From the NCBI RefSeq assembly GCF_964355755.1, contig NC_092675.1, positions 23,036,912-23,100,911 of the forward strand: a stretch of DNA of 64,000 nucleotides, in the 5' to 3' direction. The translations under genes and the position numbers were made by a program. Below the pieces are notes generated by a model. The model saw only the letters and a list, made by a program, of their open reading frames with translations, did not search any database and was not told where the DNA came from. This document shows positions 14,629 to 64,000 of this stretch, piece after piece (positions within the stretch are counted from its first letter, which is position 1; each line of letters starts with the position of its first letter). This DNA is from Antedon mediterranea (taxonomy: Eukaryota > Animalia > Echinodermata).

Positions 14629-14669
<41 letters not shown>

Positions 14670-28900: not shown

Positions 28901-28931
<31 letters not shown>

Positions 28932-28935
<4 letters not shown>

Positions 28936-29120
28936 AGTGGTATGATACTCGCCCTGTAAGCGAGAGGTTGCAGGTTCGAATCCAGCCAGAGGCATTTTTT
29001 CATACAACTAAAAAATATGGAACTTTCGCCAATGAGCTATGCTCGACGCGATTATGAGATCATGTTCCGAATATGAGCACTGTTTCTATAATTTACAGTA
29101 TGATTTATATATATATATAT
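28932..29120 (+). mobile_element. 5'-truncated tRNA(TGT)-family element between (TA)n tracts
   Basis: gtctagtggtatgatactcgccctgtaagcgagagg...ctgtttctataatttacagtatgattta(TA)n matches 12957-13035 and 12650-12770. Confidence 0.8.
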
Positions 29121-29126
29121 TTATAT

Positions 29127-29448
29127 GGTGGTGGTGGTTATTTATAACCACCATTTAAGCTGTTTTTTAGTCTCATTCCAAAATTGTTTATATCTCTACC
29201 AAGCTACCTTCTTTTTCTTTTATTCCTGTCCACCCAGGCAGCACTTGCCAGCTTTATACTATGACGTTATCCAAATTCTTTCACTTGCACTGATGAAGGG
29301 CTAGTGTTGCCCGAAAGCTCTGCTAACTTTTCTGGCTGTTTACTTTATCGTTTTGATTTAACTTTTCGCTTTTTATTTTTGTATCTCCATTGAGATCCAG
29401 CCACTGATACCCACAGCATTGTCATTTTTTTCAGTAATTTGCCTTTGG

Positions 29449-29483
<35 letters not shown>
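29127..29483 (+). mobile_element. (TA)n-tailed non-autonomous element resembling a Penelope-like pseudo-LTR, carrying a hammerhead ribozyme
   Basis: Family copies at 55117-55287, 57565-57812, 57813-57863 (-), 58095-58130 (-), 60831-60966 (-) and a fragment at ~12321-12349 (-). Copies that retain the 3' end finish in ..aatttgcctttggattta(TA)n or a close variant. Confidence 0.7.
29285..29326 (+). ncRNA. Minimal type I hammerhead ribozyme motif
   Basis: ttGCA-CTGATGA-A-GGGC(tagtgtt)GCCC-GAA-AGCT-C^TGCtaa. It has the complete catalytic core, a 4-bp stem II, a palindromic AGCU stem III and stem I GCA/TGC. Predicted cleavage is after C29320. Confidence 0.75.
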
Positions 29484-39100: not shown

Positions 39101-42100
39101 AGATTCTGTGTCTGCTGTGTCAACAATTAATGTTTCTTCTTCTGTTGTTGTAGGAGTCTCTGTTTCATCTGTTTCCTCAGTTTCTTTCTCTTCGTCAATA
39201 GGTTCAATCACATCTACATCTTCCTTATCAGTCCCACCTGTTGTTACTTCTGTTTCATCACCAACCTCAGCTTCTGTTTCAGTAGTTTCTTCAGTTTCTT
39301 TTCCTGGTTCTTCAGTAGATTCTGTGTCTGCTGTGTCAACAATTAATGTTTCTTCTTCAGTAGTTGTAGGAATCTCTGTTTCATCTATTACCTCTGTTTC
39401 TTTCTCTTCGTCAATAGGCTCAATCACAACAACATCTCCCGTATCAGTCCCATCTGTTGTTACTTCTGTTTCATCACCAACGTCAGCTTCTGTTTCGGCG
39501 GTGTCTTCAGTTTCTTTTCCGGGTTCTTCAGTAGATTCTGTGTCTACTGTGTCAACAATTAATGTTTCTTCTTCAGTAGTTGTAGGAATCTCTGTTTCAT
39601 CTATTACCTCTGTTTCTTTTTCTTCGTCAGTAGGCTCAATCACAACAACATCTCCCGTATCAGTCCCATCTGTTGTTACTTCTGTTTCATCACCAACGTC
39701 AGCTTCTGTTTCGGCTGTGTCTTCAGTTTCTTTTCCGGGTTCTTCAGTAGATTCTGTGTCTGCTGTGTCAACAATTAATGTTTCTTCTTCAGTAGTTGTA
39801 GGACTCTCTGTTTCAACTCTTTCCTCTGTTTCTTTCTCTTTTTCAGTAGGCTCAATCACAACAACATCTCCCTTATCAGTCCCACCAGTTGTTACTTCTG
39901 TTTCATCATCAACCTCAGCTTCTGTTTCGGTAGTTTCTTCAGTTTCTTTTCCGGATTCTTCAGTAGATTCTGTGTCTGCTGTGTCAACAATTAATGTTTC
40001 TTCTTCAGTTGTTGTAGGACTCTCTGTTTCTTTCTCGTCGTCAGTAGGCTCAATCAGAACAATATCTCCCTTATCAGTCCCACCTGTTGTTACTTCTGTT
40101 TCATCATCAACCTCAGCTTCTGTTTCGGTTGTGTCTTCAGTTTCTTTTCCGGGTTCTTCAGTAGATTCTGTGTCAACAATTAATGTTTCTTCTTCAGTTG
40201 TTGTAGGACTCTCTGTTTCTTTCTCTTCGGCAGTGGGTTCAATCACAACAACATCTCCCTTATCTGTCCCACCTGTTTCTACTTCGGTTTCATCATCAAC
40301 CTCAACTACTGTTTCAGTTGTTTCTTCAGTTTCTTTTCCGGGTTCTTCAGTAAACTCTGTGTCTGCTGTGTCAACAATTAATGTTTTTTCTTCAGTAGTT
40401 GTAGGAATCTCTGTTTCATCTATTACCTCTGTTTCTTTCTCTTCGTCAGTAGGTTCAATCACAACAACATCTCCCTTATCTGTCCCACCTGTTGTTACTT
40501 CTATTTCATCACTAACGTCAGCTTCTGTTTCGGTTGTGTCTTCAGTTTCTTTTCCGGATTCTTTGGTAGATTCTGTGTCTGCTGTGTCAACAATTAATGT
40601 TTCTTCTTCAGTTGTTGTAGGAGTCTCTGTTTCATCTGTTTCCTCTGTTTCTTTCTCTTCCTCAGTAGGCTCAATCACAACATCTCCCGTATCAGTCCCA
40701 TCTGTTGTTACTTCAGTTTCATCACCAACGTCAGCTTCTGTTTCGGTTGTGTCTTCAGTTTTTTTTTCGGGTTCTTTGGTAGATTCTGTGTCTGCTGTGT
40801 CAACAATTAATGTTTCTTCTTCTGTTGTTGTAGGAGTCTCTGTTTCATCTGTTTCCTCAGTTTCTTTCTCTTCGTCAATAGGTTCAATCACATCTACATC
40901 TTCCTTATCAGTCCCACCTGTTGTTACTTCTGTTTCATCATCAACCTCAGCTTCTGTTTCGGTAGTTTCTTCAGTTTCTTTTCCTGGTTCTTCAGTAGAT
41001 TCTGTGTCTACTGTGTCAACAATTAATGTTTCTTCTTCAGTAGTTGTAGGAATCTCTGTTTCATCTATTACCTCTGTTTCTTTCTCTTCGTCAATAGGCT
41101 CAATCACAACAACATCTCCCGTATCAGTCCCATCTGTTGTTACTTCTGTTTCATCACCAACGTCAGCTTCTGTTTCGGCGGTGTCTTCAGTTTCTTTTCC
41201 GGGTTCTTCAGTAGATTCTGTGTCTACTGTGTCAACAATTAATGTTTCTTCTTCAGTAGTTGTAGGAATCTCTGTTTCATCTATTACCTCTGTTTCTTTT
41301 TCTTCGTCAGTAGGCTCAATCACAACAACATCTCCCGTATCAGTCCCATCTGTTGTTACTTCTGTTTCATCACCAACGTCAGCTTCTGTTTCGGCTGTGT
41401 CTTCAGTTTCTTTTCCGGGTTCTTCAGTAGATTCTGTGTCTGCTGTGTCAACAATTAATGTTTCTTCTTCAGTAGTTGTAGGACTCTCTGTTTCAACTCT
41501 TTCCTCTGTTTCTTTCTCTTTTTCAGTAGGCTCAATCACAACAACATCTCCCTTATCAGTCCCACCAGTTGTTACTTCTGTTTCATCATCAACCTTAGCT
41601 TCTGTTTCGGTAGTTTCTTCAGTTTCTTTTCCGGGTTCTTCAGTAGATTCTGTGTCTGCTGTGTCAACAATTAATGTTTCTTCTTCAGTTGTTGTAGGAC
41701 TCTCTGTTTCTTTCTCGTCGTCAGTAGGCTCAATCAGAACAATATCTCCCTTATCAGTCCCACCTGTTGTTACTTCTGTTTCATCATCAACCTCAGCTTC
41801 TGTTTCGGTTGTGTCTTCAGTTTCTTTTCCGGGTTCTTCAGTAGATTCTGTGTCAACAATTAATGTTTCTTCTTCAGTTGTTGTAGGACTCTCTGTTTCT
41901 TTCTCTTCGGCAGTGGGCTCAATCACAACAACATCTCCCTTATCTGTCCCACCTGTTTCTACTTCGGTTTCATCATCAACCTCAACTACTGTTTCAGTTG
42001 TTTCTTCAGTTTCTTTTCCGGGTTCTTCAGTAAACTCTGTGTCTGCTGTGTCAACAATTAATGTTTTTTCTTTAGTAGTTGTAGGACTCTCTTTTTCATC

Positions 42101-45100
42101 TGTTTCCTCTGTTTCATCTGTTTTCTCCGTTTTTTTCTCTTCGTCAGTAGGTTCAATCACAACAACGTCTCCCTTATCAGTCCCACCTGTTGTTACTTCT
42201 GTTTCATCATCAACCTCAGCTTCTTTCTCAGTAGTTTCTTCAGTTTCTTTTCCGGGTTCTTCAGTAGATTCTGTGTCTACTGTGTCAACAATTAATGTTT
42301 CTTCTTCAGTAGTTGTAGGAATCTCTGTTTCATCTATTACCTCTGTTTCTTTCTCTTCGTCAGTAGGCTCAATCACAACAACATCTCCCGTATCAGTCCC
42401 ATCTGTTGTTACTTCTGTTTCATCACCAACGTCAGCGTCTGTTTCGGCGGTGTCTTCAGTTTCTTTTCCGGGTTCTTCAGTAGATTCTGTGTCTACTGTG
42501 TCAACAATTAATGTTTCTTCTTCAGTAGTTGTAGGAATCTCTGTTTCATCTATTACCTCTGTTTCTTTTTCTTCGTCAGTAGGCTCAATCACAACAACAT
42601 CTCCCGTATCAGTCCCATCTGTTGTTACTTCTGTTTCATCACCAACGTCAGCTTCTGTTTCGGCTGTGTCTTCAGTTTCTTTTCCGGGTTCTTCAGTAGA
42701 TTCTGTGTCTGCTGTGTCAACAATTAATGTTTCTTCTTCAGTAGTTGTAGGACTCTCTGTTTCAACTCTTTCCTCTGTTTCTTTCTCTTTTTCAGTAGGC
42801 TCAATCACAACAACATCTCCCTTATCAGTCCCACCAGTTGTTACTTCTGTTTCATCATCAACCTCAGCTTCTGTTTCGGTAGTTTCTTCAGTTTCTTTTC
42901 CGGGTTCTTCAGTAGATTCTGTGTCTGCTGTGTCAACAATTAATGTTTCTTCTTCAGTTGTTGTAGGACTCTCTGTTTCTTTCTCGTCGTCAGTAGGCTC
43001 AATCAGAACAATATCTCCCTTATCAGTCCCACCTGTTGTTACTTCTGTTTCATCATCAACCTCAGCTTCTGTTTCGGTTGTGTCTTCAGTTTCTTTTCCG
43101 GGTTCTTCAGTAGATTCTGTGTCAACAATTAATGTTTCTTCTTCAGTTGTTGTAGGACTCTCTGTTTCTTTCTCTTCGGCAGTGGGCTCAATCACAACAA
43201 CATCTCCCTTATCTGTCCCACCTGTTTCTACTTCGGTTTCATCATCAACCTCAACTACTGTTTCAGTTGTTTCTTCAGTTTCTTTTCCGGGTTCTTCAGT
43301 AAACTCTGTGTCTGCTGTGTCAACAATTAATGTTTTTTCTTCAGTAGTTGTAGGAATCTCTGTTTCATCTGTTTTCTCCGTTTCTTTCTCTTCGTCAGTA
43401 GGTTCAATCACAACAACATCTCCCTTATCAGTCCCACCTGTTGTTACTTCTGTTTCATCATCAACCTCAGCTTCTGTCTCAGTAGTTTCTTCAGTTTCTT
43501 TTCCGGGTTCTTCAGTAGATCCTGTGTCTGCTGTGTCAACCGTTAATGTTTCTTCTTCAGTAGTTGTAGGACTCTCTGTTTCATCTGTTTTCTCTCTTTC
43601 TTTCTCTTCGTCAGTAGGCTCAATCACATCTACATCTCCCGTATCAGTCCCATCTGTTGTTACTTCTGTTTCATCATCAACCTCAACTACTGTTTCAGTA
43701 GTTTCTTCACTTTCTTTTCCGGGTTCTTCAGTAGATTCTGTGTCTACTGAGTCAACAATTAATGTTTCTTCTTCAGTAGTTGTAGGAGTCTCTGTTATAT
43801 CTGTTTCCTCTGTTTCTTTCTCTTCATCAGTAGGTTCAACAACATCTCCAGTATCTGTCCCATCTGTTGTTAATTCTGGTTCTTCACCAACGTCAGCTTC
43901 TGTTTTGGTTGTGTCTTCAGTTTCTTTTCCGGGCTCTTCAGTAGATTCTTCGTCAGTGGGCTCAATCACAACAACATCTCTCTCATCAGTCCCACCTGTT
44001 GTAACTTCTGTTTCATCATCAACCTCAAGTACTGTTTCAGTAGTTTCTTCAGTTTCTTTTCCGGGTTCTTCAGTAGATTCTGTGTCTGCTGTTTCAACAA
44101 TTAATGTTTCTTCTTCAGTAGTTGTAGGACTCTCTGTTTCATCTGTTTCCTCTGTTTCTTTATCTTCGTCTGTAGGCTCAATCACAGCCACATCTCCCTC
44201 ATCAGTCCCACCTGTTGTTACTTCTGTTTCATCATCAACCTCAACTACTGTTTCAGTTGTTTCTTCAGTTTCTTTTCCGGGTTCTTCAGTAGATTCTGTG
44301 TCTGCTGTGTCAACAATTATTGTTTCTTCTTCAGTAGTTGTAGGAATCTCTGTTTCATCTATTACCTCTGTTTCTTTCTCTTCGTCAGTAGGATCAATCG
44401 CAACAACATCTCCCTTATCTGACCCACCTGTTGTTATTTCTGGTTCTTCACCAACCTCAGCTTCTGTTTTGGTTATTTCTTTTCCCGGATCTTCAGTAGT
44501 TTCCGTGTTTACTGTGTCATCCTTAGCTTCTGTTGGTTCAACCTCGATAACATTTTTATTTTCAGTAACATCCTCAGGGACAGCTTCAGTTGTAACCGTA
44601 CATTCTTCAGGTAATGGTAGCGTAGGATCTGGTATTTAATAGAGTTGCATATTGTTTATACATTGTTATATCGTGTATTTTATGGAATTTAATTTTAACA
44701 ACGTATTATTAACTTGAAATTTGAATGAATGATATTATTCTAACGGCTTTGATAAAGTCCCTTTTTAAAATGTTAATGATATAGAAAGGATTAAGACCTT
44801 GTTTGAAAGACAGAGAAAATATTTCTTTTTTTATAGGCTACAACACCCCTGATTGAATCATTGAATTAGATAATCTTGTAATTTTATTCCAGCTGGGCCA
44901 TTTTTAAATGTTTTATCGAATAATGACTGATCTCCTGAAAATACTAATTTATTTTTTTAAACTGTTTTTGTCACATAAAATATATTCACTTTTGTCAAAA
45001 AGTAGATCGAGAAACAGTTTTAAATTTTACAGTATTTAGAATATACTAACCAAATTCGCACAGTATCTTTATGTGTCTTTCACATGGTATTGCAAACCAC

Positions 45101-48100
45101 TGTCCTAAACGAACTTTCATTGCGGCACATAGGTTTCCTCTTTGTGGTTCTCCATCCTTCCACGCTGAAAATAATTTAAAATTATATAACTAATTAACTA
45201 AATATATTGAGTGAATGTAGTTTAATGTATATCTATGTATATATGATAAAGTATATGAATAGTAGTTGTGGAATGTGTTATTGTCTAAACATAAGAAATA
45301 TGTCACATCACCCACAATCTAAGGAACAACTCAATATCTCATGATTATGTAAAGGAACATGCTTTGTTTAGTGCAATACCTTCAAACCGTGATGTCTCAT
45401 CAGTTGGAATCCAACGATATCCATCAACCTGTGAAATGTAACGGTAGCCTATCCAGATAAGCTTGGTTTTGTAACCATCGTCAATAAGTCTTTCTTGCAG
45501 AAAGTCGTTTTCTTCTTGAGACGATATGACAACAGGTCTGGCATTGCACATTTCCTCGTTACATCGTGCGGCAATGCCCTCAAACGGATTTGCGTTTGCC
45601 ACAAAGTAACAATTCTTTCCATAACTGTAGGTTTGAGCCGGACATTCTGTGAAATAAATAATATGCGATAAATAATGTTTCAATATCTAATGTTCCCATG
45701 TTGTTGTCTAATATTTAAATGTGTATTTTTTATTTCGACAGGGTTAGCAAATATACATTGCTCCGATATCCTGTCATTATATGTATGCGAAACATCTTAT
45801 TATATAGCTATACTTTAAGAAAATGCACATCCAATACCGTAAATCCCGTTTAATATATTAGGGAGCTTTTGCATCGGGACGGTAAATGAAGGGGATGGTA
45901 ATTAACAGAGCGTAACGATTTTTTTCGACACAAGCGCTGACGTCATCCTTCTTGGTGAGTTTATGCGTCTTTGGTTAGAAAAGTTTATTTAGTCATTTTT
46001 GTCATTACCAAAATTGCAGCTTGACAAGGGAATAAGATATCTGAATCCTTTGATTTTCCGACGACAACATTACAATGATTAATTAAAAATGTCTTACCTA
46101 TCATAGGTTCTGCCGTCCTTTTCGCTATTCTATGGTTAACCTATGTAATATAAATATATACAATGATAGATATTTTCAATTTAAATCAACTTGAAACAGT
46201 GTTTCAATATCGAATATCCGTCGATATTCGTACGATAACAAGCTCAATTTATAGAACCTAACTCTTAAAGAAAGTTAACCTACTCTAACCTAAATACTTA
46301 ATAATATTAATTGAGTAAAATGGCCGAGTGGTTAAGACAGAAACGCCGTTTACCATACATCAGTTCGAGGCCGACTACCTCCTAGTTCTGGTGGTGGAAC
46401 AAGTCTTCTCAGATATGGAATATAAGCCGTAGGTCCAATGTACACAATTTGCCCTTTGCCTTTAACGAAAATCATTCGTTCCCGGTGAACTGGTTTACAA
46501 AATATCCTCTTGGTCAGTGAGATTGTCACCAATCGGATAGGACAGTGATTGATTTACTAACACTAATTAATCAGTGGAGCTGCTGATTGGCAGAAAATCG
46601 TCGACATAAACTTTCTGAAAATGAGATTATTGTATTTGTCGTGTGATTATACTGCATAATTTTCGTCGTCGCTAAACAAGATACCGATCTGGTGAAACAG
46701 TCTGGTATGTTCTTTTTAAAATTATAACTAGTATTTATTATGAAACATGAACAAACCAGGCTTAGTTTCTCTGAAAAATTGCTAAGAAAACATGTCATGG
46801 ACAACAGTATAATAAAATTGGTAAAATAGTCAAAGTAAAGCAAGAAAAAAAAAATTATAGTCATGCAGACAGTTTCATGTTATAAGAAGGTTTTAAGGAC
46901 GTACATGTGTATTGCAAAGTGGTAGATCGGTTTGCCGTTTTGTATTTTTACACTATTACACATTGCTGTATTTATAATACTCATGTGCTACTCACAATTT
47001 GATATTGTAAAATTAACATATTAATTAACGGAAACATTTTAGGCATGAGGAAATAAAGCTATTAACCTCGTTCTAAAATGCAATGGTGTTCTTTATATTA
47101 TGATTATGAACTCGCTCTAAATTGATTAGGATACCGTGGCATGCTATGGACTGCTGTATTGAATTGAAATGATGGACCTGTTTCAATCGTAATCAATCAT
47201 TTCCACATGCAAAAATTGACCGTTTGAACATTAATTTAAAACCGTATTATCATACTGGTTCACTACCAAATTGATGCATGCATTTTCGGTATGTTGAAGT
47301 TATTATAATCTATACAGTAATTTGTATTTAGCTTGTACAGTTTTATAAAGCCAGCCTAATGTTTATGGACGTTTTCAGAAAACACAAGTAATAAAAAAAA
47401 AAAACAATAGGCCTACAGGCGTATAGACAGTAATATTAATAATATTAAAAATAATGGAATCAGTCTTTAATATTATAAAACAACCCAATAAATAAAGTCA
47501 TGTTAGAACATATAAACATATAAGCGCGTAACAATTTCGAAAGGCATTGTGGGATAGAATAGAGCTATGGGTGGTGCCATTGTGAGCCATGGAGTAGGGC
47601 GCCCGCATCAAATTAGAAAGTCAAAATCATAGAGGGGATCTGCTAATGCTCTAGGGGGGATAGAGTAATTGACTGAGGAGTAGGGCGCCCGCATCAAATT
47701 AGAAAGTCAAAATAATTGAGGGGATCTGCTAATACTCTAGGGGGTAGAGTAATTGACTACCTAGTTTGGAGGGGGAGCTGCTCCATGCTGTGAAATGGCG
47801 TCGCCCAGTTTGACCTTTTAACCCTGTACTTCCGATACTGTGTTTTGAATGCAAATTGAAGAACAGGAGATTCTTGTGTTATAAGTTCTTTGATATAAGT
47901 AATAATCAAATGAACCGCTAAACATTCTGAATTGTGTATTAATGTACGTTACGTGAGCCGCTGTTTTAATACATCTGTGTTATGTCACTATAAACTTCCT
48001 TCCAGCTTAACAGCTGAACTGATTCAGTGGTTATATCAATGAACTTTCGAATTGAGATAATTATCGTAAAAGTTCGTCATGCAATGCAAGATATTAAATA

Positions 48101-51419: not shown

Positions 51420-51681
51420 ATTTTGAATTTCCTTTCTAAATTTTAAATTACTTCACAGGGGGCGCACTTCGTGTAATAGTAAAAAATAATTGTTCTCGGA
51501 TACAGTCACAAAAATTAATCAAAAGAGAAATGGAAATCAACAATGACACACTAATAATAATTATAGCTAGGCTAGCAAATGACTAATTCCTACCTACTAA
51601 AGCTGGCCTATATTACATTATACGAATGTGGCAAACAATAATAGGTTACTTTGGAAAATGTCAATTCAGCTCTTATGCAAA

Positions 51682-51750
51682 CATGGCTGCAGTCGCGTGC
51701 GCAAATTTGAGTTAGTGTTTACCGACCGACCGACATAGTGAACTATAGAT
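51682..51750 (-). mobile_element. Partial HINE/DINE-1-like copy
   Basis: catggctgcagtcgcgtg...ttagtgtttaccgaccgaccgacatagtgaactata, the reverse of the family's core. Confidence 0.65.
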
Positions 51751-54700
51751 AACAATACACCCTTGTCTGCTTCTTTTTACACACCTGGATAATGTCACCT
51801 GTAACAACGATATAACGGTCGAACAGAATGCATTATTCAAACCTCAATTTGTTTTTCTGTATTCTTTAAATCAAAGCAGAGCACCAATTATATGTTATAT
51901 AAACTATATATAGACCTAAACAAAGGTTTTATCATGTGATTCTGTTTGCAATAATGTAAAGTGAATATTATATTTTAATATAGGTACCCGAACACCACGA
52001 AAGAAAAAGAAACAGTATAACGGTATATGTTGTATTTATTTACATTTATATTGTAAAAAGTTCGTTCATAGAAAGAATGGTACAATGACAAAAATCTACA
52101 GGAAACAACCACTTCATCAAACAATAACATGAGAAAAAAGACTAAGAACAATTTGTTCACCATGGAGTCAGATCAAAATAGTCTTGTAGTGATGAATTCT
52201 ACTGTAAAATAAAAGAAAGTATCACTTTTATAAGACACGATAGTTGTTCTGTTTTGTATTAGCAAATTAAAATCTTGATCAAACGACAGCGGGAAGCAAA
52301 AGGTACTTACATTTCTACTTGATGATGATTGTTGATTTATATCACATTGATAAAATCTACCCGTGCGCCGTGATATCTTTATAAAGATTTGTACTAAATA
52401 TGATTCGGGCAAACTTTTTTTCGAAGGGATATTAGTAGGCCTATACAACGGAAAGATTGTATATAAAAATTACAGCAACTTTTAGTGTCCATCATAGAAA
52501 TCAGAATCAGCCTAAGAATAAAATTCTCCTAGGGAAGATTGTGGGTCAATTAATAAACGAACACATTACTTTCCAACGTTTAGTTTTTAAAATAAACCAG
52601 ATCAAATAATGAGCAGTTTGGCTTTCCGTGGCTTGTACATCTTAATTTATTAGAACTTTTCAGAAATAAAAAGTTAGTTACTCCTTGGTTCACTATTGGC
52701 ATTCAAAACTATCTTCTCTATTGGGATTGTACACATAAGGCATCGGAAGTCAAAATGCCAATAATGGCATAAAATAAAAGTACTTGGCATTCGAAGAATA
52801 TTAAACAAATAAGTTTTTTTATATACAACTAAATAAAATGAATACAAATTATGACCTTCAACAACTTAATAGCGAATATGTCAGCGTGATACAACATCCT
52901 TCAGCCGTCTATTTACATTCACGAAATAAATATGAGACATTTAACACAAATATTAATAATAATGATGATTGAAGATGTGATCTATTTTGTAAATTTAATT
53001 GTATTGACTAAACATAATGTACACACATTTCTAAAACATTATTACTTGTCCTTAATATGTAGATTTCTTGGCTTTGAGATATGGGATTGTGGCTTTTTCG
53101 GTAAGGGGGGGGGGGTGCACTTTGTGGTTTTTAATCAAGGTTGTGGTGAGAGTTATTAGTTTGTTTTTCCAGAAGAGTATTCCTATAAACTAGAGAATCG
53201 CGTTGCTACGACTAAAGAGATAAAAAAAAAGTCCGATGGCCAATGACGTCACAATTCAAGAACATTTAATAAAGAGAGTGTTACGAAAAAAGCTTTTATA
53301 TAAAATAATAAAAGATATCTCAGAAATGTATAGATACGTGTTCATTTTGATATTCGTGATATATGCAGCTGTAGCTATCAGGTATTTGTCGTGTATCATT
53401 CCAAAATTTAGCAGATTAATGTTATAGTTCCGTTATTAGTAGAGCATGCAAACTCGCCACTTGTGCACTGCCATCTCAAACTGACCTCTAATTGACACAT
53501 CGACCTACAGCCATCAGTTCAAGGATTGGCTAGAAATTGTGCTGACATTGCAGAAGGACAAGCACAAGATATTTAATTGTGGCACGAATTGCGTGCAGCT
53601 ACTAGACTATTGCATAAAATAAACAGATGACAGGGCATGCGCAGGATTGGGGAGTATCATTTTATAATTTCGTGTAATATTCATTAAATAGATATATTCG
53701 CACAATTACGCGAATAATCATTCAAGGACTGGCTAGCAAATGTGCTGAAATTGCAGAACGACACAAGCACATAAACGATGGTATTGTAGCACTAATAAAA
53801 TGCAGCTTATATTGAGAATCACATCATTCCGCATTGCGTGTAAACTTCAAGATAAATTTTGTCTTCGCATTCTAAATCAATAGTGTATGTCGAATAGTCA
53901 TGTGCGATGAATGTCAAAATGTGAGAAAAAAAACGCTACGGACACGTTGTACAAAATAATTGTAATTTAAGTATTTTATAGTTTTGTTTACTCATGTGCA
54001 GTGGTGGTTCCAGGATTTGCCCGACGGGGTTGGGGGTGGTAATGTGCGCTTAGCATCCATTTGGTGGGGACGCCAAGTGGGTTGGCTGAGCCCCGGAATC
54101 TCCCACAATATTAAACATTTAAATTTAGTTGCTTTTAAAGATGAAATCCTTGATTGGGCACAGCAGGGTATTTTTATCAAGGAATATGAATATTTTTCGG
54201 CCGAAACATGGTCAATCACCCGGTCCTTCTTTTTCCGGAAATCCAGATCATTTCATAGTTTATTGTGTGAACTCGGTAGAATTCATATAACTTCAGCATG
54301 CACTTTAATTATTTGAAATGTTCACGATTTTGAATTTGTTACTATTTTCATACCTTACAGTTAGTAGTCTGCTATCACTAAAATTTAAATGGAATATTGA
54401 TTCATTGGCAAAAGAATCAATTGTTGGATCTATTTAGTTTCTTTTTATATATCTCCACTATGATGGGGAACATTATCTGTGACTGTGATATTTCATTCAA
54501 TGCATTGGGCGAAATACAATTTTATCCCAAAGTGACACACATTGCCAACATTTTCTTCCCCCCCCCCCCACAATCTTTCAAACGTATACGTAAATTAATC
54601 AAGATGCCTGTCAAAGTGCTGTCAGCAGAGTTATTTTCTTGTCTTCTTGCACCAGCTTGGTTCCCCGAAACGCAACAATGACAATTTGGCCAATCACAAT

Positions 54701-55116
54701 TAAGCGATGGATTATTCTTATTAACTGTGGCACGATTTGATCCGATTTTCTTCTTCTGAGAGTCTTTTTGGGGGAAAATGTCTAAATACTACACAGTTAG
54801 AATATCTACTTCCTGTTTTAGAATGAAATGTTGAGCTAAATGTTTGGAGTCACACTATGTAGACATATGCTACTAGTTTACGAGTATAAATATTTCCACC
54901 CACGCATAGGAAATTAAAAATAGTTTTTGGTTTACTGTTGTGGTAGGTTACAAACGTCACAATGTTATCATCCATTCGATGGAATACCGTACCTAATGTA
55001 TTGAAAAACCTAATATTCGATGTATGTGTTGTACGGCAGTTCATATGTTAGGTATTATACAGATTATATAACAAACCTTACGAATATATAATTTATATTA
55101 TGTATATAATAAATAG

Positions 55117-55287
55117 ACTTGCACTGATTAAGGGCTATTGTTGCCCGAAAGATCTGCAAATTTGTCTGGCTGTTTCACTTATCGTTTTCATTTAGCTTTT
55201 TGCTTATTTTATATTTTATCTCCATTGGGATCCAGCCACTGATACCCACATCATTGTCATTTTTCAGTAATTTGCCTTTGAATTTAT
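55117..55287 (+). mobile_element. Diverged copy of the hammerhead-bearing element
   Basis: TTGCA-CTGATTA-A-GGGC..GCCC-GAAAGATC-TGCAA followed by the family body. The core carries a G8>U change. Confidence 0.75.
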
Positions 55288-56259
55288 AAATAAATTACAT
55301 AAAAAGACCAAGATGTCAAGGCTTATTATGTTCAAATCCGGTAAACAACATTTACGTATAACGGTAAGTTCATTACTACATTACTCTAGATCATTATACC
55401 AGTGTTGTGTGTGAATATTTGATTTTATTATTAACTGTTGTATAGATTCAATGCAATATTTGTGTTATACATTTGTGGTAGTGGTATGGATTTACAAATG
55501 TCATTAATGACGGTGAAAATATAATTTTCGTTTGATTCAAAAGTTGAAAACGGTTCAAATTATGTAATTTGGGTAAGATAATTGTTTACATTAGAAATAA
55601 TACCGCTTTCAGAAAGTGAAATTATATCAATGTTAATGCAAACGTTTATATTTTAAAATTTACATGTAGAGAAATACCCTTTCAATATAGTGAATCATCA
55701 TTGAGGAACAGCGTTATTTCCTTGAAGACATCTTATAGCGGGAATACAAATAGCTTGTGTTTAATTCAATTCTGTTACGCCAATTTCCTATTAAATATAG
55801 CAGAAAATATGACTGTTAAAAAGTTACTACTTACACACGGATGCATAATATTACAGCTGTCTGATAGAATTACATTTAACAACATACACTATATGTTTAG
55901 TAAGACATAATAGATAATATCCTCCTAAAACATCCTTTATCATAACACCTAAAATACTTGTATGTATTGTCGAGTGCAATTCGAGATCTAACATTGTATT
56001 TCATGTTTTAAAAATACATTTACATGATAATTACACATTAGCAATTATTCAATTTATTCAAAGATGTGATCCTGTAATATAAGATACAATGTTGAAAAAA
56101 CGACAAAGATAGTTAATATTATTATTTTAAGTGTAAAATCGATCGCATACTTTGGTAATCGCACTCGTGGATAACATTCTATATTTTTCTCCTTTTTTCA
56201 TCTTACCATTTATTGATCTTCTGTGGTTTACCTATATAACTATGCTTTCGGTAATCCTT

Positions 56260-56900
56260 ATGAATACTCGAAATAATAATAAAACAAAAACTAAACAACC
56301 GAAAGCACAAGCATTTAGGCCGAAAAGCTATGTTGATGACACGTATGCAGGTGCGGATAAAAACCGAGATGGTAAATCAACACATCAACCAGCCTGGCGT
56401 CACCAGCGAAGTATGCCAGTCAATTCCAAGAATGACGTGACAATGGGTCCACCGGACGATGCAAATGAGTTTTTTCAGTGGTATGTCAAAGTCAACACTG
56501 AGAAAATCTTCATTAGCAGGTAGAAACCAGAGTGGACATGGATAATTTGTTTACGTCGGTCGAAAGAAAATTAACTTGACTCAAAGCCTGAAATGCTGAG
56601 TAAATTGATGAGACCACTAGCCAACAAAGGATTACGATTGATGGTAAAATTGACTGAAATCTTGAACCGGGATAAAAATAAACTGGAGATCAATTAAAAA
56701 AGAAATAATATTCAGATTGTTGGCTACAAGGAAGAAAAAGGTGAATATATAGAAATTGTTAGTTGACCGAAATGGTTAGACAGTAATATATCTGATTTCA
56801 CTCAACTAGACTCAATTATATTCAAGGTCTTTCTTCAACCGAAACAACAAATTAGATTAAAATATCAAAGATTGAAAAGTAGCAGAATGTTTGGGAGCAA
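56260..56900 (+). pseudogene. Decayed LINE ORF1-like remnant (L1/CR1-type coiled-coil plus RRM region)
   Basis: Coding-like but stop- and frameshift-ridden translation containing KLEIN*KRNNIQIVGYKEEKGE, similar to the LENRSRRNNLRIxGxxE motif of LINE ORF1. Confidence 0.45.
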
Positions 56901-57564
56901 TTCTCCTGATTTACACTGTCTTCATACATGCTCAACATATCAACTATTGTTCTACACTTTTCAGTGTAAGAACAAATAAAAGAAAAATAGTTTTATGCAG
57001 ATTTCTTAACTTAAGTTATATCATTTCGTTAATTGGATAACAATCCGGATAATAATCGTAATGAGATAATTAACAACTTAAATATCGAGCTGGATATGCG
57101 GTCTTTTACTGAGGAGCTGCGGTAAGCTTCAACATCGTGTTACATATCTATAAGGGTACGTCTAGTTTAAGATTTGTATTGCTCTGCACATGTATAAGAG
57201 CAGATTGATATTTATAAGCACACTGAAACATGTATTGGCAAAACAATTAGGAATAAATTATATTAATAATAATGACGTGTAAAATACTGTGAAGATCCTA
57301 TATTTACACTGTTAACAGTGGAAAATGACAGCTGGAGTATATAGTTCATTGAAAATACATTTTAAAGAAACGAAGGGTATTTCTTTTTATTGTATTGAAT
57401 TTTTTTTTATTAGAGTGTATGTATTATCCGTATATTGACCTTGACCTTAAAAGGAAATTCAAGGTGTCCCATCAGTGTGTACGACGTCCGTTTTCATTTA
57501 TGCTGAAGGCGACACCATTGGATCACCAGTTAAAATTTGTAAGCCATAACTAACATAACTAACT

Positions 57565-57776
57565 AGCACTTGCCAGTTCTTATACTATGACGTTATCCAA
57601 ATTCCTTCACCTGCACCGATGAAGGGCTAGTGTTGCCCGAAAGCTCTGCTAACTTTTCTGGCTGTTTTACTTTATCGTTTTGATTTAGCTTTTCGCTTTT
57701 TTTTTGTATCTCCATTGAGATCCAGCCACTGATACCCACAGCATTGTCATTGTTTTCACTAATTTGCCTTTGGATT

Positions 57777-57818
<42 letters not shown>

Positions 57819-58160
57819 CCAAAGGCAAATTAGTGAAAAAAATGACAATGCTGTGGGTATCAGTTCGAACAATACCATGAAAGCCCCAGTGGTCTAATGG
57901 TTAGGACATCTGCATATCAAGCAGGCGGTCCGAGTTCGAGTCTCGGTTGGGGCGACTTTTTCTCATTCTCACAGATTTCCTCATCTTTATCGTTTCAAAT
58001 TAATTAATTAAATTTCAGTATATCACCGGGCGGTTTAGCATTAATGTTCTTTGCCTCTTGTGTTTATATATATATATATATATATAAAGAAAATTTAGCA
58101 GAGCTTTCGGGCAACACTAGCCCTTCATCATATGTATATATATATACACATATATATATG
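57565..58160. mobile_element. Nested (TA)n hotspot: hammerhead element (+), inverted tail (-), tRNA(ATC) element (+), hammerhead fragment (-)
   Basis: 57565-57779 hammerhead family (core CCGATGA), (TA)n, 57813-57863 inverted copy of its 3' end, 57864-58066 tRNA-containing element, (TA)n, then 58095-58130 reverse hammerhead. Confidence 0.8.
57883..57954 (+). mobile_element. tRNA-like moiety (ATC anticodon) inside a repeated element; probably not a functional tRNA
   Basis: GCCCCAG/TTGGGGC acceptor stem, perfect T arm ccgag-TTCGAGT-ctcgg and anticodon arm tctgc-atATCaa-gcagg. Diverged copies at 61042-61113 (-), 61402-61469 (-) and ~63946-64000. Confidence 0.7.
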
Positions 58161-58744
58161 ATTTATATATATTGATTTGTTTGTTGCAATTTTAATGTCA
58201 CAAAATAGTTATTGATTTTGACCAAAAATTGGATCGCAAAAAATTATCGACTTGATAAAACAGCAATTTAAAACAATCAAAATTTCAAATTGTTTTTTGT
58301 TAATTTTTACGGTTTGTTTTTATTTGAAAGCCCTAGTGGTATGTGTAATTATAAAACAATACATTCCTAATTTCTTTACATTCACAGTTTATGTTATAAT
58401 AGTTGTATTGTATAGGCCTATATTATCATCATGATAGCTACATACTTGTAAATATATATATTTTGTTTCATTTAATATACTTAAATTGTTTTATTTATTG
58501 TAAAATGAGGTTGTCAGATATGGCGCTTGTCATACTGACTCTTTGTCAAAAGTCTGTGATCACATTGCTTAATGTTAGAACTAGCATGCTATCAGAATAA
58601 AATAATACATTAAGTAAAATAATATTTAAACGAATACTACACCCGGTAGGTAACGAAACACAATAATGTTCACAAATTAAACTACGAATAGTCCTATCAT
58701 GCTACATATATATCATAATAGACTAAAACGTATTCTAGCCATAT

Positions 58745-61700
58745 TCATTCAGCACCTGTTGTTACTTCTGTTTCTGTTTCTTCATCAACTTTAGCTTCTG
58801 TTTGGGTTGTTTCTTCAGTTTCTTTTCCTGGATCGTCATTAGTTTCTGCGTCTGCTGTGTCAACCGTTAATGTTTCTTCTTCAGTAGTTGTAGGACTCTC
58901 TGTTTCATCTGTTTCCTCTTTGTCTTTGTCTTCATCCGTAGGCTCAATCACAACATCTCCCGTATCTGTCCAACCTGTTTCTTCACCAAAATCAGCTTCT
59001 ATTTCGGTTTTTTCTTCAGTTTCTTTTCCAGGATCGTCAGTAGTTTCTCTGTCAACCGTTAATGTTTCTTTGTCTTTCTCTTCATCAGTAGGCTCAATCA
59101 CAACATCTCCCGTATCTGTCACACCTGTTGTTACCTCTGATTCTGTTTCTTCACCAACCTCAGCTTCTCTTTCGGTTGTTTTTTCAGTTTCTCTTCCAGG
59201 ATCGTCAGTAGTTTCTGTGTCTGCTGTGTCAACCGTTAATGTTTCTCCTTCAGTAGTTGTAAGACTCTCTGTTTCATCTGTTTCCTCTTTGTCTTTCTCT
59301 TCATCCGTAGGCTCAATCACAACATCTCCCGTATCTGTCCCACCTGTTTCTTCACCAACATCAGCTTCTATTTTGGTTGTTTCTTCAGTTTCTTTTCCAG
59401 GATTGTCAGTAGTTTCTCTGTCAACCGTTAAAGTTTTTTTGTCTTTCTCTTCATCAGTAGGATCAATCCCAACATCTCCCGTATCTGTCCCACCTGTTGT
59501 TACCTCTGTTTCGGTTTCTTCACCAACATCAGCTTCTATTTCGGTTGTTTCTTCAGTTTCTTTTCCAGGATCGTCAGTAGTTTCTGTGTCAACCGTTAAT
59601 GTTTCTTTGTCTTTCTCTTCATCAGTAGGCTCAATCACAACATCTCCCGTATCTGTCCCGCCTGTTGTTACCTCTGTTTCTGTTTCTTCACCAACATCAG
59701 CTTCTATTTTGGTTGTTTTTTCAGTTTCTTTTCCAGGATCGTCAGTAGTTTCTGTGTCAACCGTTAATGTTTCTTTGTCTTTCTCTTCATCAGTAGGCTC
59801 AATCACAACATCTCCCGTATCTGTCCCACCTGTTGTTACCTCTGTTTCTGTTTCTTCACCAACATCAGCTTCTATTTCGGTTGTTTTTTCAGTTTCTCTT
59901 CCAGGATCGTCAGTAGTTTCTGTGTCTACTGTGTCATCCGTTAATGTTTCTCCTTCAGTAGTTGAAAGAATGTCTGTTTCATCTGTTTCCTCTTTGTCTT
60001 TCTCTTCATCAGTAGGCTCAATCACAACAACATCTCCATTATCTGTCCCATCTGTTGATACTTCTGTTTCTGTTTCTTCACCAACCTCAGCTTCTCTTTC
60101 GGTTGTGTCTTCAGTTTCTTTTCCAGGATTGTCAGTAGTTTCTGTGTCTACTGTGTCAACCGTTGTTTCTTCTTCCGTAGTTTCATCTTTGTCTTCTTCA
60201 GTAACATCCTCAGGGACAACTTCAGCTGTACATTCTCTAGGTAATGGTATCGTAGGATCTAGTATTTAATAGAGTTACATATTGTTTATACATTGCTTTA
60301 TCTTGTATTTATGAAATTGAATTTTAACAACGTATTATTAACTTTAAATTTAATCAATGAAGGATACTGTTTTTAACAACTTTGACAAAATTCCTTTTTA
60401 AAATGTTAATGATGTAGGAAGGATTAAAACCTTGTTTGAAAGACAGAGTGAATATTCCTTTTTCATAGGCTACAACATGAATCAATACATTAAATGCTCT
60501 TGTAATTGTATTATAGCTGAGCCATATTTCAAATATTGTATTTTCGAATAATGAATGCTTTCCTGAAAATACTAATCTTATTTTTAAACTGTTTGTTGAA
60601 TAATTGTTTTATTATGTCATAAAATGTATTCACGTTTGTCAAAAGTAGATCTAAAGTGTACAACGTACAGCATTTAGAATATACTAACCAAATTCGCACA
60701 GTATCTGTATGTGCCTTTCACATGGTATTGCAAACCACTGTCCTAAATTAACTTTCATTGCGGCACATAGGTCTCCTCTTTGTGGTTCTCCATTTGTCCA
60801 CGCTGAAAGTAATGTAAAATTATATATATAGGCAAATTACTGAAAAATGACAATGCTGTGGGAATCAGTGACTGGATCTCAATAGAGATACAAAAAAAAA
60901 GCGAAAAGTTAAATCAAAACGATAAAGTAAAACAGCCTGAAAAGTTAGCAGAGCTTTTGGGCAACCGCCCGGTGATGTACTGAAATGTAATTAATTAATT
61001 TGAAACGATAAGATGAGGAAATCTGTGACAATGAGAAAAATCACCCCAACCGAGACTCGAACCCAGACCTTCTGCTTGATATGCAGCTGTCCTAACCATT
61101 AGACCACTGTGGCTTTCATAGTATTGTTCAAACTCGATTGGATAGCGACTATTTAACATTCTCGGCGTGGTACGATGGAAGAGCACTAGTCCCTCAATTG
61201 TACGCACGCGCACCAGAGATCATATTGAAACGCCCTCATCTTTCAGTATTTTATTCATGAGGCGGGATCTCAGAGGAGAGACACTTTTATATACATAAAC
61301 ATCACAGGCAAAGAATAAATTCTGAAATACTGAAATTTAAGTAATTATTTAAAACGATAACGATGGAAAAGGATGAGGAAATCTATGAGAATGAGAACCC
61401 CCGCCCCAACCGAGAACCCGGAACCTCCTGCTTGATATGCAGATGTCCTAACCATTAGACCACGTGGGCTTTCATGGTAATCTCGATTGGATAGCGACTC
61501 TTTAAAATTCTCGGCGTGGTATGGCGGAACAGCAATAGTCCCAAGAGTCTCTATCCAATCGAGTTTGAACAATACCATGAAAGCCTTTTGAGTATTAGTT
61601 GTGGAATGCGTTATTGTCACCTCACCCACAATCTAAGGAACAACTCAATGTCATAATTATATAAAGGAACATGCTTTGTTTAGTGCAATACCTTCAAATC

Positions 61701-62322
61701 GTGATGTCTCTTCAGTTGGAATCCAACGATATTCATCAACCTGTGAAATGTAACGGTAGCCTATCCAGATAAGCTTCGTTCTGTAACCATCGTCAATAAG
61801 TCTTTCTTGCAAAAAGTCGTTTTCATCTTGAGACGATATGACAACAGGCCTGGCATTGCATCTTTCCTCGTTACATTGTGCGGCAATGCCCTCAAACGGA
61901 TTTGCGTTTGCCACAAAGAAACAATTATTTCCATAACTGTAGGTTTGAGCCGGACATTCTGTGAAATTAATAACACAAATAATGTTTCAATATCTAATAA
62001 TGTTCCCATGTTATTGTCTAATATAAATGTGTATTTTTTTTTTATCACGACAGGGTTAGCAAATATAAATTGCTCCGATACTCTTTAATGTCTTTAATGG
62101 AGGAAAGTGCTTAGGTTAGGAAAGTTTATTTCGCCGTTTTTGTCATTACCAAAAAGGCAGCTTCACAAGGAAATAAGATATCTTGCTATGTTACCATGAT
62201 TATAATGGTAGCTGCATGAAGATGTGGATTGATTTGAGTTCAGCCCGACGACAAAAATACAATGATAAAAATGTCTTACCTATCATAGATTCTGGCGTCC
62301 TTTTCTCTATTCTATAGTTAAC
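58745..62322 (-). CDS. Truncated tandem paralog of the giant lectin gene (exons 62322-62280, 61958-61692, 60802-60689, 60258-58745): CTL plus ~500-aa acidic repeat
   Basis: Exons and introns are collinear with 46140-44628 and have identical exon lengths (43/267/114 nt), intact splice sites and an open frame. The repeat exon stops abruptly (VTTGAE*) where homology ends. It may be functional or a young pseudogene. Confidence 0.7.
60831..61585 (-). mobile_element. Composite insertion in paralog intron: two tRNA(ATC) elements, one fused to the hammerhead-element tail, one with an inverted 5' segment
   Basis: Absent from the matching intron of the full gene (45165-45379). The junction gggcaac|cgcccggtgat is at ~60966. 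Inverted arms at 61469-61503 / 61543-61585. Confidence 0.75.
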
Positions 62323-63050
62323 CTATATAATATAAATATATACACAGTAATAGATATTTAATCACCTTGAAACAGCAATGTAATGTAACAAGCTCAATTA
62401 TAGCACCTAACTCTTAAAGAAAGTTAAGCTACTCTATAACCTAAATACTCTTTTCCTATATTAAGTGAGTCAAGTGGCCGAGCGGTTAAGGCAGGATCAC
62501 CGTTTTACCATGCATCGATTCGAGGCCGTCTAGCTCCTAGTTCTGGTGGTGGAGGAACAAGTCTTCAGATAATAGTGGGGAACCTAATGTTCCAAATATC
62601 AATTCCGTGAGATTTTAATGCTCAAGTTGAGTTCTTGGCAGTTTTGGAATCCTTAAGACTAGTAGAATTCATTGCAACTAGGGGCCAATTTTCCCGACCT
62701 AATTTGGCCGCCATCTTGGATTTCAAAATGGCCACCATTATTTAAAACTGATAGTAGCTCCTATTTTAAACCTCGTACGAAAGTGACAAATCTTACAAGA
62801 TTATGATAAATCAGTCCAATGGTACAATTTATATATTAGTGGGGAACCTAATGTTTCAAATATCAACTTCATGAGATTTTAATTTTTTTTATTAATATAA
62901 TTATTATAATAATAATATAATATTATTACAATCATATATAATTCTCAAAATTTACTGACAATGCAATACAAATAATATGTCAAACAACAATAACAATTAT
63001 TTTAACAATATTTATCTAAAGTTTAACTTCAAAGACGAATAAAAACATAC

Positions 63051-63158
63051 CCTAAGTCCAATGATGTATTTACCAGGAATTGGTTTCTTGGCTTTGCGTA
63101 ATGGTGCTAGGGTAGCACTGGCGACAACCACCAACAAGAGAAGACAAAATACACGCAT
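63051..63158 (-). CDS. Captured first coding exon of a proteinase K/aqualysin-like S8 serine protease (signal peptide plus start of I9 propeptide)
   Basis: MRVFCLLLLVVVASATLAPLRKAKKPIPGKYIIGLR followed by a phase-0 donor AGG|gtatgt, with acceptor ttgttctag| at 63166. LAPL....PIPGxYIVxL is the typical I9 prodomain start. No further protease exons are in the window. Confidence 0.7.
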
Positions 63159-63456
63159 GATGTAGTCTAGAACAAAACGAACATTTAAACAAAATTGGTA
63201 CAAATTACAATGTTATTTGTAAATTACACATTTTATATTATTCAAAAATCAATAAACATTAAACCTAAACTGGACTATGAATAATATTGACTGAAATGAC
63301 GACATCAATAAATACCTAGTATAGATGTCAATAAGATGATCAATCAAATCAACAAAACAATATGCAATGAACTTAAAACTTAAAACTTGAAATTAGGTAT
63401 GTCTAAATTAATACTATTACGAAAGAACCAATAACTGATCCTGTTGTTTGGCCTAC

Positions 63457-63522
63457 CTGATCAAATCTTGTCCTATAATGTGATTGAGAATGATGGTCCG
63501 ACGAGCTGCTGTCCTTTAAATA
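63457..63522 (-). promoter_or_regulatory. TATA box, initiator and short 5'UTR exon of the captured protease fragment
   Basis: TATTTAAAG at 63522-63514, Inr-like TCATTC with its A at 63491 (31 nt downstream) and donor CAG|gtaggc at 63457/63456. Confidence 0.6.
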
Positions 63523-64000
63523 CTTCATTCTGTCCAGAGGCGTGGTAATCAATGGTACAATTTATAATAATAGCATATGGCAGCCATATTTTGATGATTA
63601 AATACATAAATGCATACATTATATACGTTTTTATTGGCGGCCATCTTGGAATTTAATGTGGTTGCCATATGCTATTTTTATAAATTGTAGCGTTGGACTA
63701 ATTTATCATAATATAGTAAGATTTGTCACACACATTACGTTCGTACGTGGTTTAAAATAGGAGCTATACTATCAGTTTTGAGTAAAAAATAGGGGCCATT
63801 TTGAAATCCAAGATGGCGGCCAAAGTAGGGATGGGAAAAATAGTCCCCAGTTGCAATGAATTATACTAGTCCTAAGGATTCCAAAACTGCCAAGAACTCA
63901 ACTTGAGCATTAAAATGTCATGGAATTACATTAGGTTCCCCACTATTAGGAAAAATCTGCATATCAAGCAAACTGTTCCGGTTTCGAATTTCGATTTTGG

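Follow-up and report, generated by a model that had tools for sequence, protein, structure and literature searches.

tRNA-bearing repeats beside a hammerhead family in the feather star Antedon mediterranea: candidate Penelope-type passengers with an antisense leader

What copies a non-coding repeat that carries a tRNA look-alike in its middle? SINE-LINE pairs are the textbook tRNA-derived passengers. Here, the question is raised by a window (the whole stretch of DNA analysed, 64,000 nucleotides) from the feather star Antedon mediterranea, in which we find three high-copy non-coding families: H, which bears a hammerhead, and A and T, which bear tRNAs. A and T are abundant repeats of about 360 bp with the tRNA look-alike mid-unit and an antisense copy of its 3' half. 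Our best reading is that they are non-autonomous, Penelope-type, retrozyme-like units in which a tRNA takes the place of the hammerhead. On balance, we favour the view that A and T rely for copying on a Penelope-type reverse transcriptase/endonuclease of the kind that probably also serves H. The features on which the argument draws are as follows, in window positions.

12319-12376, minus strand: H 3' end; before it stand 14 nt shared exactly with the A trailer, plus 8-9 nt of TA
12377-12492, plus strand: A copy cut inside the tRNA, with (TA)25 at its end
12543-12608, minus strand: T 3' end in inverted orientation, 5'-truncated, facing the direct T array head-to-head
12607-13040, plus strand: partial tandem of T that repeats every 369 bp (12626 to 12995); full tRNA 12947-13018, then T6
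12891-12934, plus strand: part of the T leader, antisense to the tRNA 3' half, T-run and trailer; helix with 12991-13032
28932-29105, plus strand: T copy cut in the tRNA, (TA)n on each side; partial tRNA 28930-28986
29240-29451, plus strand: H29, the sole H copy with an unaltered hammerhead core (from 29290); (TA)16 end
55117-55290, plus strand: solitary older H copy, 87% to H29
57565-57776, plus strand: H57, H copy with a minimal type I hammerhead and one core substitution
57777-57815, no strand: (TA)n common to two opposite H 3' ends, tail-to-tail
57816-57864, minus strand: 5'-truncated H 3' end, head-to-head with A57 via a 3-nt overlap (57862-57864)
57862-58064, plus strand: A57, A copy cut 21 bp upstream of the tRNA, followed by (TA)n 58065-58086
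57883-57954, plus strand: A57 tRNA-like module, anticodon ATC, cloverleaf fully paired, 57.9 bits, then T5
58088-58131, minus strand: internal H fragment (hammerhead core), flanked by TA-rich sequence on both sides
60821-60830, no strand: insertion point marked by (TA)5, against (TA)3 in the paralogous empty site 45179-45188; no target-site duplication (TSD)
60830-60965, minus strand: H60, 5'-truncated and lacking about 7 nt at its 3' end; joined to A61a by the GTT overlap 60963-60965
60963-61287, minus strand: A61a, A copy with leader, tRNA (61113-61042) and trailer minus its last ~30 nt
61126-61166, minus strand: part of the A leader, antisense to the tRNA T arm, acceptor 3' strand, T-run and trailer
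61288-61542, minus strand: A61b, diverged A copy, ~78% to A61a and arranged with it head-to-tail at a period of 356 bp; tRNA 61469-61402
61543-61585, plus strand: piece of A leader in inverted orientation, meeting A61b head-to-head and stopping at the tRNA start, no tail
63955-63996, plus strand: diverged A tRNA fragment at the window edge

The sequence-only reading of this window gave all three families (TA)n ends and placed them together in shared (TA)n sites, and both claims are borne out. Such ends are found in each of H, A and T, and at least two families are present at each of four clusters (12319-13040, 28932-29451, 57565-58131 and 60830-61585), an arrangement matched by 142 of 200,000 random placements in simulation. 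Of 13 runs with at least five TA units, 11 have an element no more than 19 bp away, a figure that is partly circular, the tails themselves being TA. The 3' ends are fixed in copies of all three families, and 5' truncation is variable. TSDs are unreadable inside TA runs; an empty paralogue is available for a single site (insertion 60827-61586), and it carries TA where the insertion lies. This site shows no TSD, and it lacks 65 bp that the paralogue has.

Each family had also been credited with an inverted copy beside a direct one. All three pairs are present at the places quoted, but they are not one common phenomenon. The T pair (12535-12608/12736-12809) is head-to-head and of Penelope type, and a second head-to-head T joint (12900/12681) is seen in three of the four sequencing runs described below. 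The A inverted copy at 61543-61585 is likewise head-to-head; it ends at the tRNA start and is tailless. The H pair (57728-57864), by contrast with these, is tail-to-tail over one (TA)n with two separate 3' ends, and we therefore rejected the 57729/57813 inversion as a Penelope-type case: it consists of opposite 3' ends in one microsatellite. Independent ends on opposite strands had been named beforehand as counting against the proposal, and they weaken the H example only. An H inverted arm adjoining a 5' end occurs only as the cross-family arm at 57816-57864.

There are three cross-family joints in the window: H and A head-to-head at 57862, and A to H at 60963 and at 12354-12368. One contig also joins an A tRNA to the T arm of T. 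The reported joint between a tRNA-ATC element and a hammerhead-element tail does exist, at 60963-60965 with a 3-nt GTT overlap. As a trait of the family, the A-to-H fusion fails: at that point, the loose ends listed for each of the four runs go on as normal A tail or normal H. A single T insertion contains two template jumps at 2-nt overlaps, so the template switching proposed earlier holds within that insertion; across families it is suggested by the three window joints and the one contig, which could instead represent sequential insertions plus deletion.

How far the families share an enzyme can be approached through their ends. The H and T termini are identical at 16 of 23 bases (0/5000 shuffles, with the 23-nt window picked after being seen), and the whole H and T 3' regions give no alignment above chance (1184/2000 shuffles). 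The A 3' end has no significant similarity to H or T (789, 1096, 1483 and 1664 of 2000 shuffles), and an A-H 3' homology built from three short blocks was rejected on the same ground. Calling the families unrelated was thus too strong for H and T, and A is without significant 3' similarity to either. A Pfam scan of 15 of the 52 ORFs in the window gave no Penelope-like element (PLE) ORF. A single reverse transcriptase was detected in the window; it belongs to a polyA-ended LINE (6686-8024), which we rejected as partner since it shares no end with the families. One shared Penelope-type enzyme may serve H, A and T.

Separate autonomous partners would also fit a Penelope-type origin, the joints then being successive (TA)n insertions followed by microhomology-mediated deletions. 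We regard this as unlikely: the terminal similarity of H and T speaks against it, and the clean H-A joint at 57862 has the two-arm geometry and the 2-3-nt overlap of the within-family T joint, to be set against the lack of A 3' similarity to H and T, the two H ends in one microsatellite, the TA still standing between the heads at 12369-12376, an A-to-H fusion that is not the rule in the family, and the 65 bp gone from the paralogue at 60827-61586, all of which favour it.

Family-level structure was read from contigs of four runs (three samples, two organism labels), taken as contigs and not as evidence of expression, even for run X5, which may be an RNA run. For A and T, element depth in these contigs is three to four orders of magnitude above that of flanks and single-locus contigs; the host flank 13045-13115 is uncovered in all runs, and the baseline there is given by single-contig depths. 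Upstream of the tRNA, the A family sequence continues for about 137 bp in contigs of all four runs, with the main 5' boundary near 61250 and a roughly 100-fold drop in depth from 61273. The T unit is 369 bp long, is arranged head-to-tail and ends preferentially at two 3' positions (12762 and 12801-12809). Its depth is continuous over the tandem joint and dips at the locus-specific joint 12605-12624; contigs bridge the tandem joint (run X4, records 11 and 12; run X5, record 21). T is therefore circularly permuted across its own tail, and its head-to-tail tandem is family-wide across the joint. A has one head-to-tail tandem in the window (A61a/A61b, period 356 bp), whose joint gains no support as a family trait from the depth, given the drop from 61273, and H has none among the window copies. 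The tRNA module is internal in both A and T, not a 5' head, and the contigs confirm for both families the earlier claim of conserved family sequence upstream of it.

That A and T are ordinary LINE-mobilised SINEs with extra 5' sequence, TA tails and occasional twin-priming inversions is quite improbable. High copy number, a tRNA-derived module, 5' truncation and a simple-repeat tail are indeed SINE traits, and SINEs with sequence upstream of a tRNA head exist, such as pectinid MESC (excerpt of PMC4758252). However, MESC-type SINEs have TSDs according to the same excerpt and none is visible here, T is permuted across its own tail, the T-run stands directly behind the tRNA, and there is no match to the window LINE.

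The antisense leader in A and T, a new observation of this analysis, is an imperfect antisense of the tRNA 3' half and the terminator T-run, extending over 33 bp in A and 36 bp in T. The leader helices contain 11 G·U and 0 A·C pairs, and the sense strand is more stable than the antisense; this imbalance suggests that pairing is kept on the tRNA-sense RNA. The T leader pairing was equalled in 0/1000 shuffles (fold z -5.7), and that of the A61a leader with A57 in 2/1000. Tested each within its own copy, the leaders of the two degenerate A copies do not pair significantly (404 and 491 of 1000), and A/T cross pairings of leader against 3' part are not significant either (607 and 315 of 1000). Folded as circles, the 369-nt T unit has z -5.6 and the 356-nt A unit z 0.36, the latter on degenerate copies and no more stable than its shuffles. 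A captured head-to-head inversion could have made such a leader, and the tandem structure of T likewise recalls spread at the DNA level (satellite-like, rolling-circle or by a TA-targeting DNA transposon), with the leader as a fossil inversion. We consider this very unlikely, given the lack of terminal inverted repeats (TIRs; the best local score between 25-nt element ends is 4-5), the fixed 3' and variable 5' ends, and a G·U to A·C ratio that points to pairing on one RNA strand.

The tRNA modules (57883-57954, 61113-61042, 61469-61402 and 12947-13018, with a partial one at 28930-28986) have cloverleaf scores of 55-58 bits and a T5 or T6 run right behind them, which should end most Pol III transcripts. 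Other T-runs are scarce in the units, weakly so (P 0.10 for T and 0.017 for the A57 trailer), and A61b has two. The anticodon of the T tRNA reads Thr; its D-arm/anticodon-stem 22-mer falls in tRNA-Pro in 67/72 tRNA calls, and this "Thr" tRNA thus has a tRNA-Pro body. The A tRNA has an Asp anticodon with A34, and its position 32 holds a purine, an unusual combination; its body gives 2/2 matches to Glu and Asp. Searched against viral and metagenome contigs, the A-tRNA patterns gave 0 loci; the T tRNA pattern gave 77, where the family flanks are absent save for four matches of 23-29 bp, taken as chance. Although intact cloverleaves with a terminator behind them might suggest working tRNA genes, passively carried in dispersed or tandem arrays, the Pro body under a Thr anticodon, the A34 and purine 32 of the Asp-reading A tRNA, and a leader that would sequester the acceptor and T stems make this scarcely credible.

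H carries a minimal type I hammerhead with a palindromic helix III, a short helix I and an unpaired base 5' of helix II, which is 4 bp long; the core is intact in H29 only. No H copy in the window carries an attached ORF, and the H fold has z 1.2. In A and T, no hammerhead core was found on either strand at up to one mismatch. Against Rfam, the window has no match to a hammerhead or any other ribozyme at gathering level, and the part 54700-64000 has none even with E relaxed to 5. The Rfam miRNA matches, under gathering level, correspond to a TA-centred palindrome.

It is the insertion anatomy that upholds the Penelope part of the sequence-only reading: variable 5' truncation, head-to-tail permutation, copies inverted head-to-head, ends in (TA)n, and neither TIRs nor any visible TSD. 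Where we looked, the elements neither start at the tRNA, nor share a tail with a LINE (that of the window), nor end in TIRs. The preferred reading, non-autonomous units copied by a Penelope-type enzyme, would then work as follows. The A and B boxes of one unit may drive Pol III, whose reading through the one T-run would make a multimeric RNA holding the next whole unit, a scheme like that described for Schistosoma Sm-alpha. The leader could pair with the tRNA 3' half and the U-run, abolishing the cloverleaf and shielding the template from tRNA-processing nucleases. The enzyme would nick (TA)n, prime on UA tracts internal to the unit and copy from one or both target strands, perhaps jumping templates at 2-3-nt overlaps and at times onto the RNA of another family. 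A bolder version, possible though we lean against it, is that A and T are two independently arisen members of an undescribed class of ribozyme-free retrozymes, whose tRNA module launches Pol III, whose unit-length RNA is cut and perhaps circularised by the tRNA-processing enzymes of the host, whose leader is a folding switch from a processed tRNA-like state to a protected template state and back, and which one Penelope enzyme copies and can join with hammerhead units within one insertion.

Two families with different tRNA bodies and one design (internal tRNA, T-run, antisense leader) stand beside a hammerhead family. A, T and H would therefore give a natural comparison for the template needs of Penelope elements, and for whether the hammerhead is dispensable. 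In crinoid annotations, A and T would in addition raise the number of tRNA genes counted above its true value.

Known systems are compared here on the basis of excerpts of the sources cited. Metazoan non-LTR retrozymes are non-coding tandem units of 170-400 nt with self-paired RNA, proposed to hijack PLE enzymes (PMC7229834, bioRxiv 10.64898/2026.07.22.740005). H fits among them as a hammerhead-bearing member or a solo pLTR; A and T lack the type I hammerhead that defines each retrozyme unit (PMC7229834), and the word "tRNA" has 0 occurrences in the main text of the preprint (bioRxiv 10.64898/2026.07.22.740005). PLEs that target (TA)n include the Naiad, Neptune and Hydra clades, and non-autonomous Chlamys elements such as MRC1 are described (PMC8557442). 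Features shared with these PLEs are 5' truncation, tandems that are partial, a 5'-truncated copy set in inverted orientation at the 5' end, an extension of 30-40 bp, a bias towards (TA)n and the lack of discernible TSDs (PMC8557442). A and T differ in being non-coding with a tRNA module, and the excerpt mentions no non-autonomous tRNA-bearing PLE form (PMC8557442). The H hammerhead resembles the minimal hammerheads of PLE pLTRs in its short helix I, unpaired base and palindromic helix III, whereas their helix II has 7-8 bp against 4 bp in H (PMC4209133). The pectinid MESC/LP-SINEs share conserved family sequence before the tRNA module; they have TSDs and a LINE-derived head, whereas A and T have no TSD and an antisense leader, and T is also tandemly permuted (PMC4758252).

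Our literature search gave no tRNA-bearing PLE passengers save the hammerhead-bearing Sm-alpha, and the supplementary family lists of PMC8557442 and PMC7229834 may hold relatives. Schistosoma Sm-alpha/Sj-alpha have an internal tRNA-derived Pol III promoter and very high copy number, and they depend for their spread on a tandem order in which the upstream unit transcribes the next (PMC6765202, PMC2770079). A and T resemble them in a tandem unit with an internal tRNA-derived promoter, here predicted by sequence only, and in very high copy number; Sm-alpha carries a hammerhead and A and T do not, while their antisense leader and (TA)n ends are not mentioned for Sm-alpha in these excerpts (PMC6765202, PMC2770079). 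Sm-alpha, with tRNA plus hammerhead, is the closest precedent.

Self-comparison and alignments of the window resolve three repeat families: H, which carries a hammerhead, and A and T, which carry tRNA-like modules (anticodons ATC and TGT, respectively). The copies are as follows.

57565-57776, H copy (H57)
60830-60965, H copy (H60)
29240-29451, H copy (H29)
28932-29105, T copy (T29)
57862-58064 (+), A copy (A57)
60963-61287 (-), A copy (A61a)
61288-61542 (-), A copy (A61b)
12607-13040 (+), T array
12543-12608 (-), inverted T 3' end

The sequence-only reading held that all three families end in (TA)n and pile into common (TA)n sites, and both points are borne out: in H, A, and T alike the 3' end is fixed at (TA)n while the 5' ends vary, and the window has four mixed-family clusters, a result reached in 142 of 200,000 simulations that placed 12 merged blocks at random. 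A paralogous duplication (43030-46415 / 58753-62571) supplies one empty insertion site, where the paralogue carries (TA)3 in place of the element and 65 bp have no counterpart. Ends of the kind expected from a DNA transposon were not seen, there being no TIRs in the H, A, or T elements and no TSD at this one insertion. The last 23 bases of H and T share 16 identities, a value reached in 0 of 5000 shuffles for a length chosen post hoc; alignments of the longer 3' regions of H and T, and of the A 3' region with either, are not above chance.

H29 and H57 begin at the identical base and are both 212 bp long, and the H unit contains a minimal type I hammerhead whose core is unaltered only in H29. 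It fits the PLE (Penelope-like element) type as described in the parts of the sources consulted (PMC4209133, PMC6765202), except that helix II is 4 bp; H is a new family of an already known hammerhead-bearing sort. The 119 bp separating T29 from H29 (29121-29239), with a small palindrome at 29132-29153, may be either host DNA or a longer H 5' part.

The elements sit in non-coding DNA amid paralogous C-type-lectin/tandem-repeat genes, in eukaryotic DNA of 34% GC with a CABLES exon (100% to a feather star protein over 59% of the query, 88% to another crinoid), matches that place the host among the crinoids. Very long tandem-repeat coding exons adjoin C-type lectin exons in these paralogous genes (13448-17224, 31475-34897, 36095-44635, 58745-60265), some of them also carrying long reading frames that stay open on the other strand. 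Other repeats include a young short element of a different kind, present as 372-bp copies in opposite orientation (26242-26613 / 47522-47893; 98.9% identical, internal 86-bp tandem repeat); a MITE-like element at 62569-63948 (~270-bp inverted arms, 83%; inner palindrome 63550-63695); and GTCG/GTCT tetranucleotide arrays forming the core of a dispersed family (8529-8605, 9176-9249, 10835-10968, 18550-18938, 51681-51749).

The ARAGORN labels of the modules, Thr for T and Asp for A, are anticodon-based. A 22-nt D-arm/anticodon-stem motif of T belongs to tRNA-Pro in 67 of 72 calls, made from 70 of 77 loci, and a 19-nt motif of A to one tRNA-Glu and one tRNA-Asp (2/2 matches). A T5 or T6 run directly follows the tRNA, except in A61b, where it is lost; no other stretch of at least four T occurs in the T unit or in A57, a weak signal. 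Both families have AATACCAT at -12 to -5, with one substitution in A61a. A decayed tRNA-like or SINE head, called by neither ARAGORN nor Rfam, lies in both paralogues (46310-46400 and 62465-62560). For the genome of a different feather star, Table 7 of PMC13079724 gives 11,013 tRNA predictions, which hints that repeats of this tRNA-bearing sort are common among crinoids.

Contigs from four of eight sequencing runs (three samples, two organism labels) were compared with the window. At 60780-61640, 3398, 8477, 1249, and 7178 contigs matched, and summed depth over H and A lay 3-4 orders above flanks and single-locus contigs; as this sum is no copy number, we take it solely as high copy, on the order of thousands. 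Depth over A drops ~10-fold in 61244-61272 and ~100-fold beyond, so the family extends ~137 bp upstream of its tRNA; the diverged upstream copy A61b limits how depth is read across the A tandem joint. The tRNA is therefore internal, with conserved family sequence upstream (the leader), as had been proposed. At 12545-13115 (499, 1471, 158, and 858 contigs), T depth stays high across 12765-12830, where one unit meets the next, dips at the locus-specific joint 12605-12624, and the tandem joint is bridged by contigs (X4 records 11 and 12; X5 record 21); these data make T a permuted unit of 369 bp, and the next unit begins with the "extension" that both arms carry, at 12543 and at 12771. Among the best-supported loose ends, each of the two internal TA tracts has T 3' termini, with 13-15 contigs in three runs ending at the first and 4-7 in two runs at the second.

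The T leader has an antisense character that the sequence-only reading did not mention: it is complementary to the 3' half of the tRNA, the T-run, and the trailer (0/1000 shuffles by alignment; whole-leader duplex energy, 15/300). The predicted fold of 12803-13040 is a rod (z -5.7), at -63.5 kcal/mol; barring the leader from pairing raises this to -23.5 kcal/mol. The A61a leader pairs with the A57 3' part (2/1000 by alignment, 3/300 by duplex energy) but its pairing with the degenerate 3' part of A61a itself falls short of significance (404/1000), as does that of the A61b leader within A61b (491/1000); at 61029 and 61040 the contig majority letters are those of A57, which pair. No such pairing was found across families. 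Together the helices of T (36 bp) and A (33 bp) contain 11 G·U pairs but lack any A·C mismatch, and stability is greater for the sense than for the antisense strand; since a neutrally decaying inversion should presumably yield both kinds equally, pairing seems to have been kept on the tRNA-sense RNA. The two leaders have an 11-nt word in common (12883-12893 and 61238-61228), their alignment being marginal (69/2000 shuffles).

An inverted partial copy beside a direct one had been claimed for each family. According to the part of PMC8557442 consulted, a PLE inversion consists of a 5'-truncated copy next to the 5' end. The T copies at 12543-12809 match this, the template having been switched twice, each time at an overlap of 2 nt, and contigs of three of the four runs contain a further T locus in head-to-head arrangement. 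The H palindrome at 57728-57864 is tail-to-tail across (TA)n, which rules it out as such an inversion; re-parsed between TA runs, the locus holds a two-arm unit in which an H end meets an A copy head-to-head at a 3-nt overlap. The proposed A-to-H fusion near 60966 exists at 60963, and a second A-to-H joint, whose breakpoints differ, lies at 12354-12368; in one contig an A tRNA is joined to the T-arm of T. Fusion is not the family norm, as loose ends listed at 60963/60965 (28/52, 47/62, 20/22, and 51/56 contigs in the four runs) continue as normal A or normal H. The joints at 57862 and 12354-12376 are read from the window, without read cover in these runs.

The anatomy, the permutation, the leader, and the joints are observed; beyond them we lean, by a modest margin of belief, towards a mechanism in which Pol III, starting in the unit upstream, would read through, a behaviour described for Sm-alpha (PMC6765202, in part), the leader would shield the template RNA, an enzyme of Naiad/Neptune/Hydra type, PLEs with a TA bias in the portion of PMC8557442 consulted, would prime at (TA)n, and templates would occasionally switch between families. 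Separate autonomous partners with sequential insertion are an unlikely alternative source of these clusters and joints. The only RT found in the window (15/52 ORFs scanned; weak RVT_1 match, E 0.00064) belongs to a 5'-truncated, frameshifted LINE at 6686-8024 (+) with a 3' UTR, a polyA end, and no shared sequence; it was rejected as partner.

Among known systems, Sm-alpha has a tRNA-Gln origin, according to the part of PMC2770079 consulted. Our literature search, with subscription papers, Repbase/Dfam, and supplements outside it, found no published tRNA-bearing, hammerhead-free PLE passenger; a paper that it brought up deals with mollusc SINEs. A retrozyme has a hammerhead in its unit, whereas no hammerhead core was found in A or T; a classical SINE has its tRNA at the 5' end, whereas theirs is not. 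Judged from their sequences, A and T appear instead to work like non-autonomous PLE passengers.
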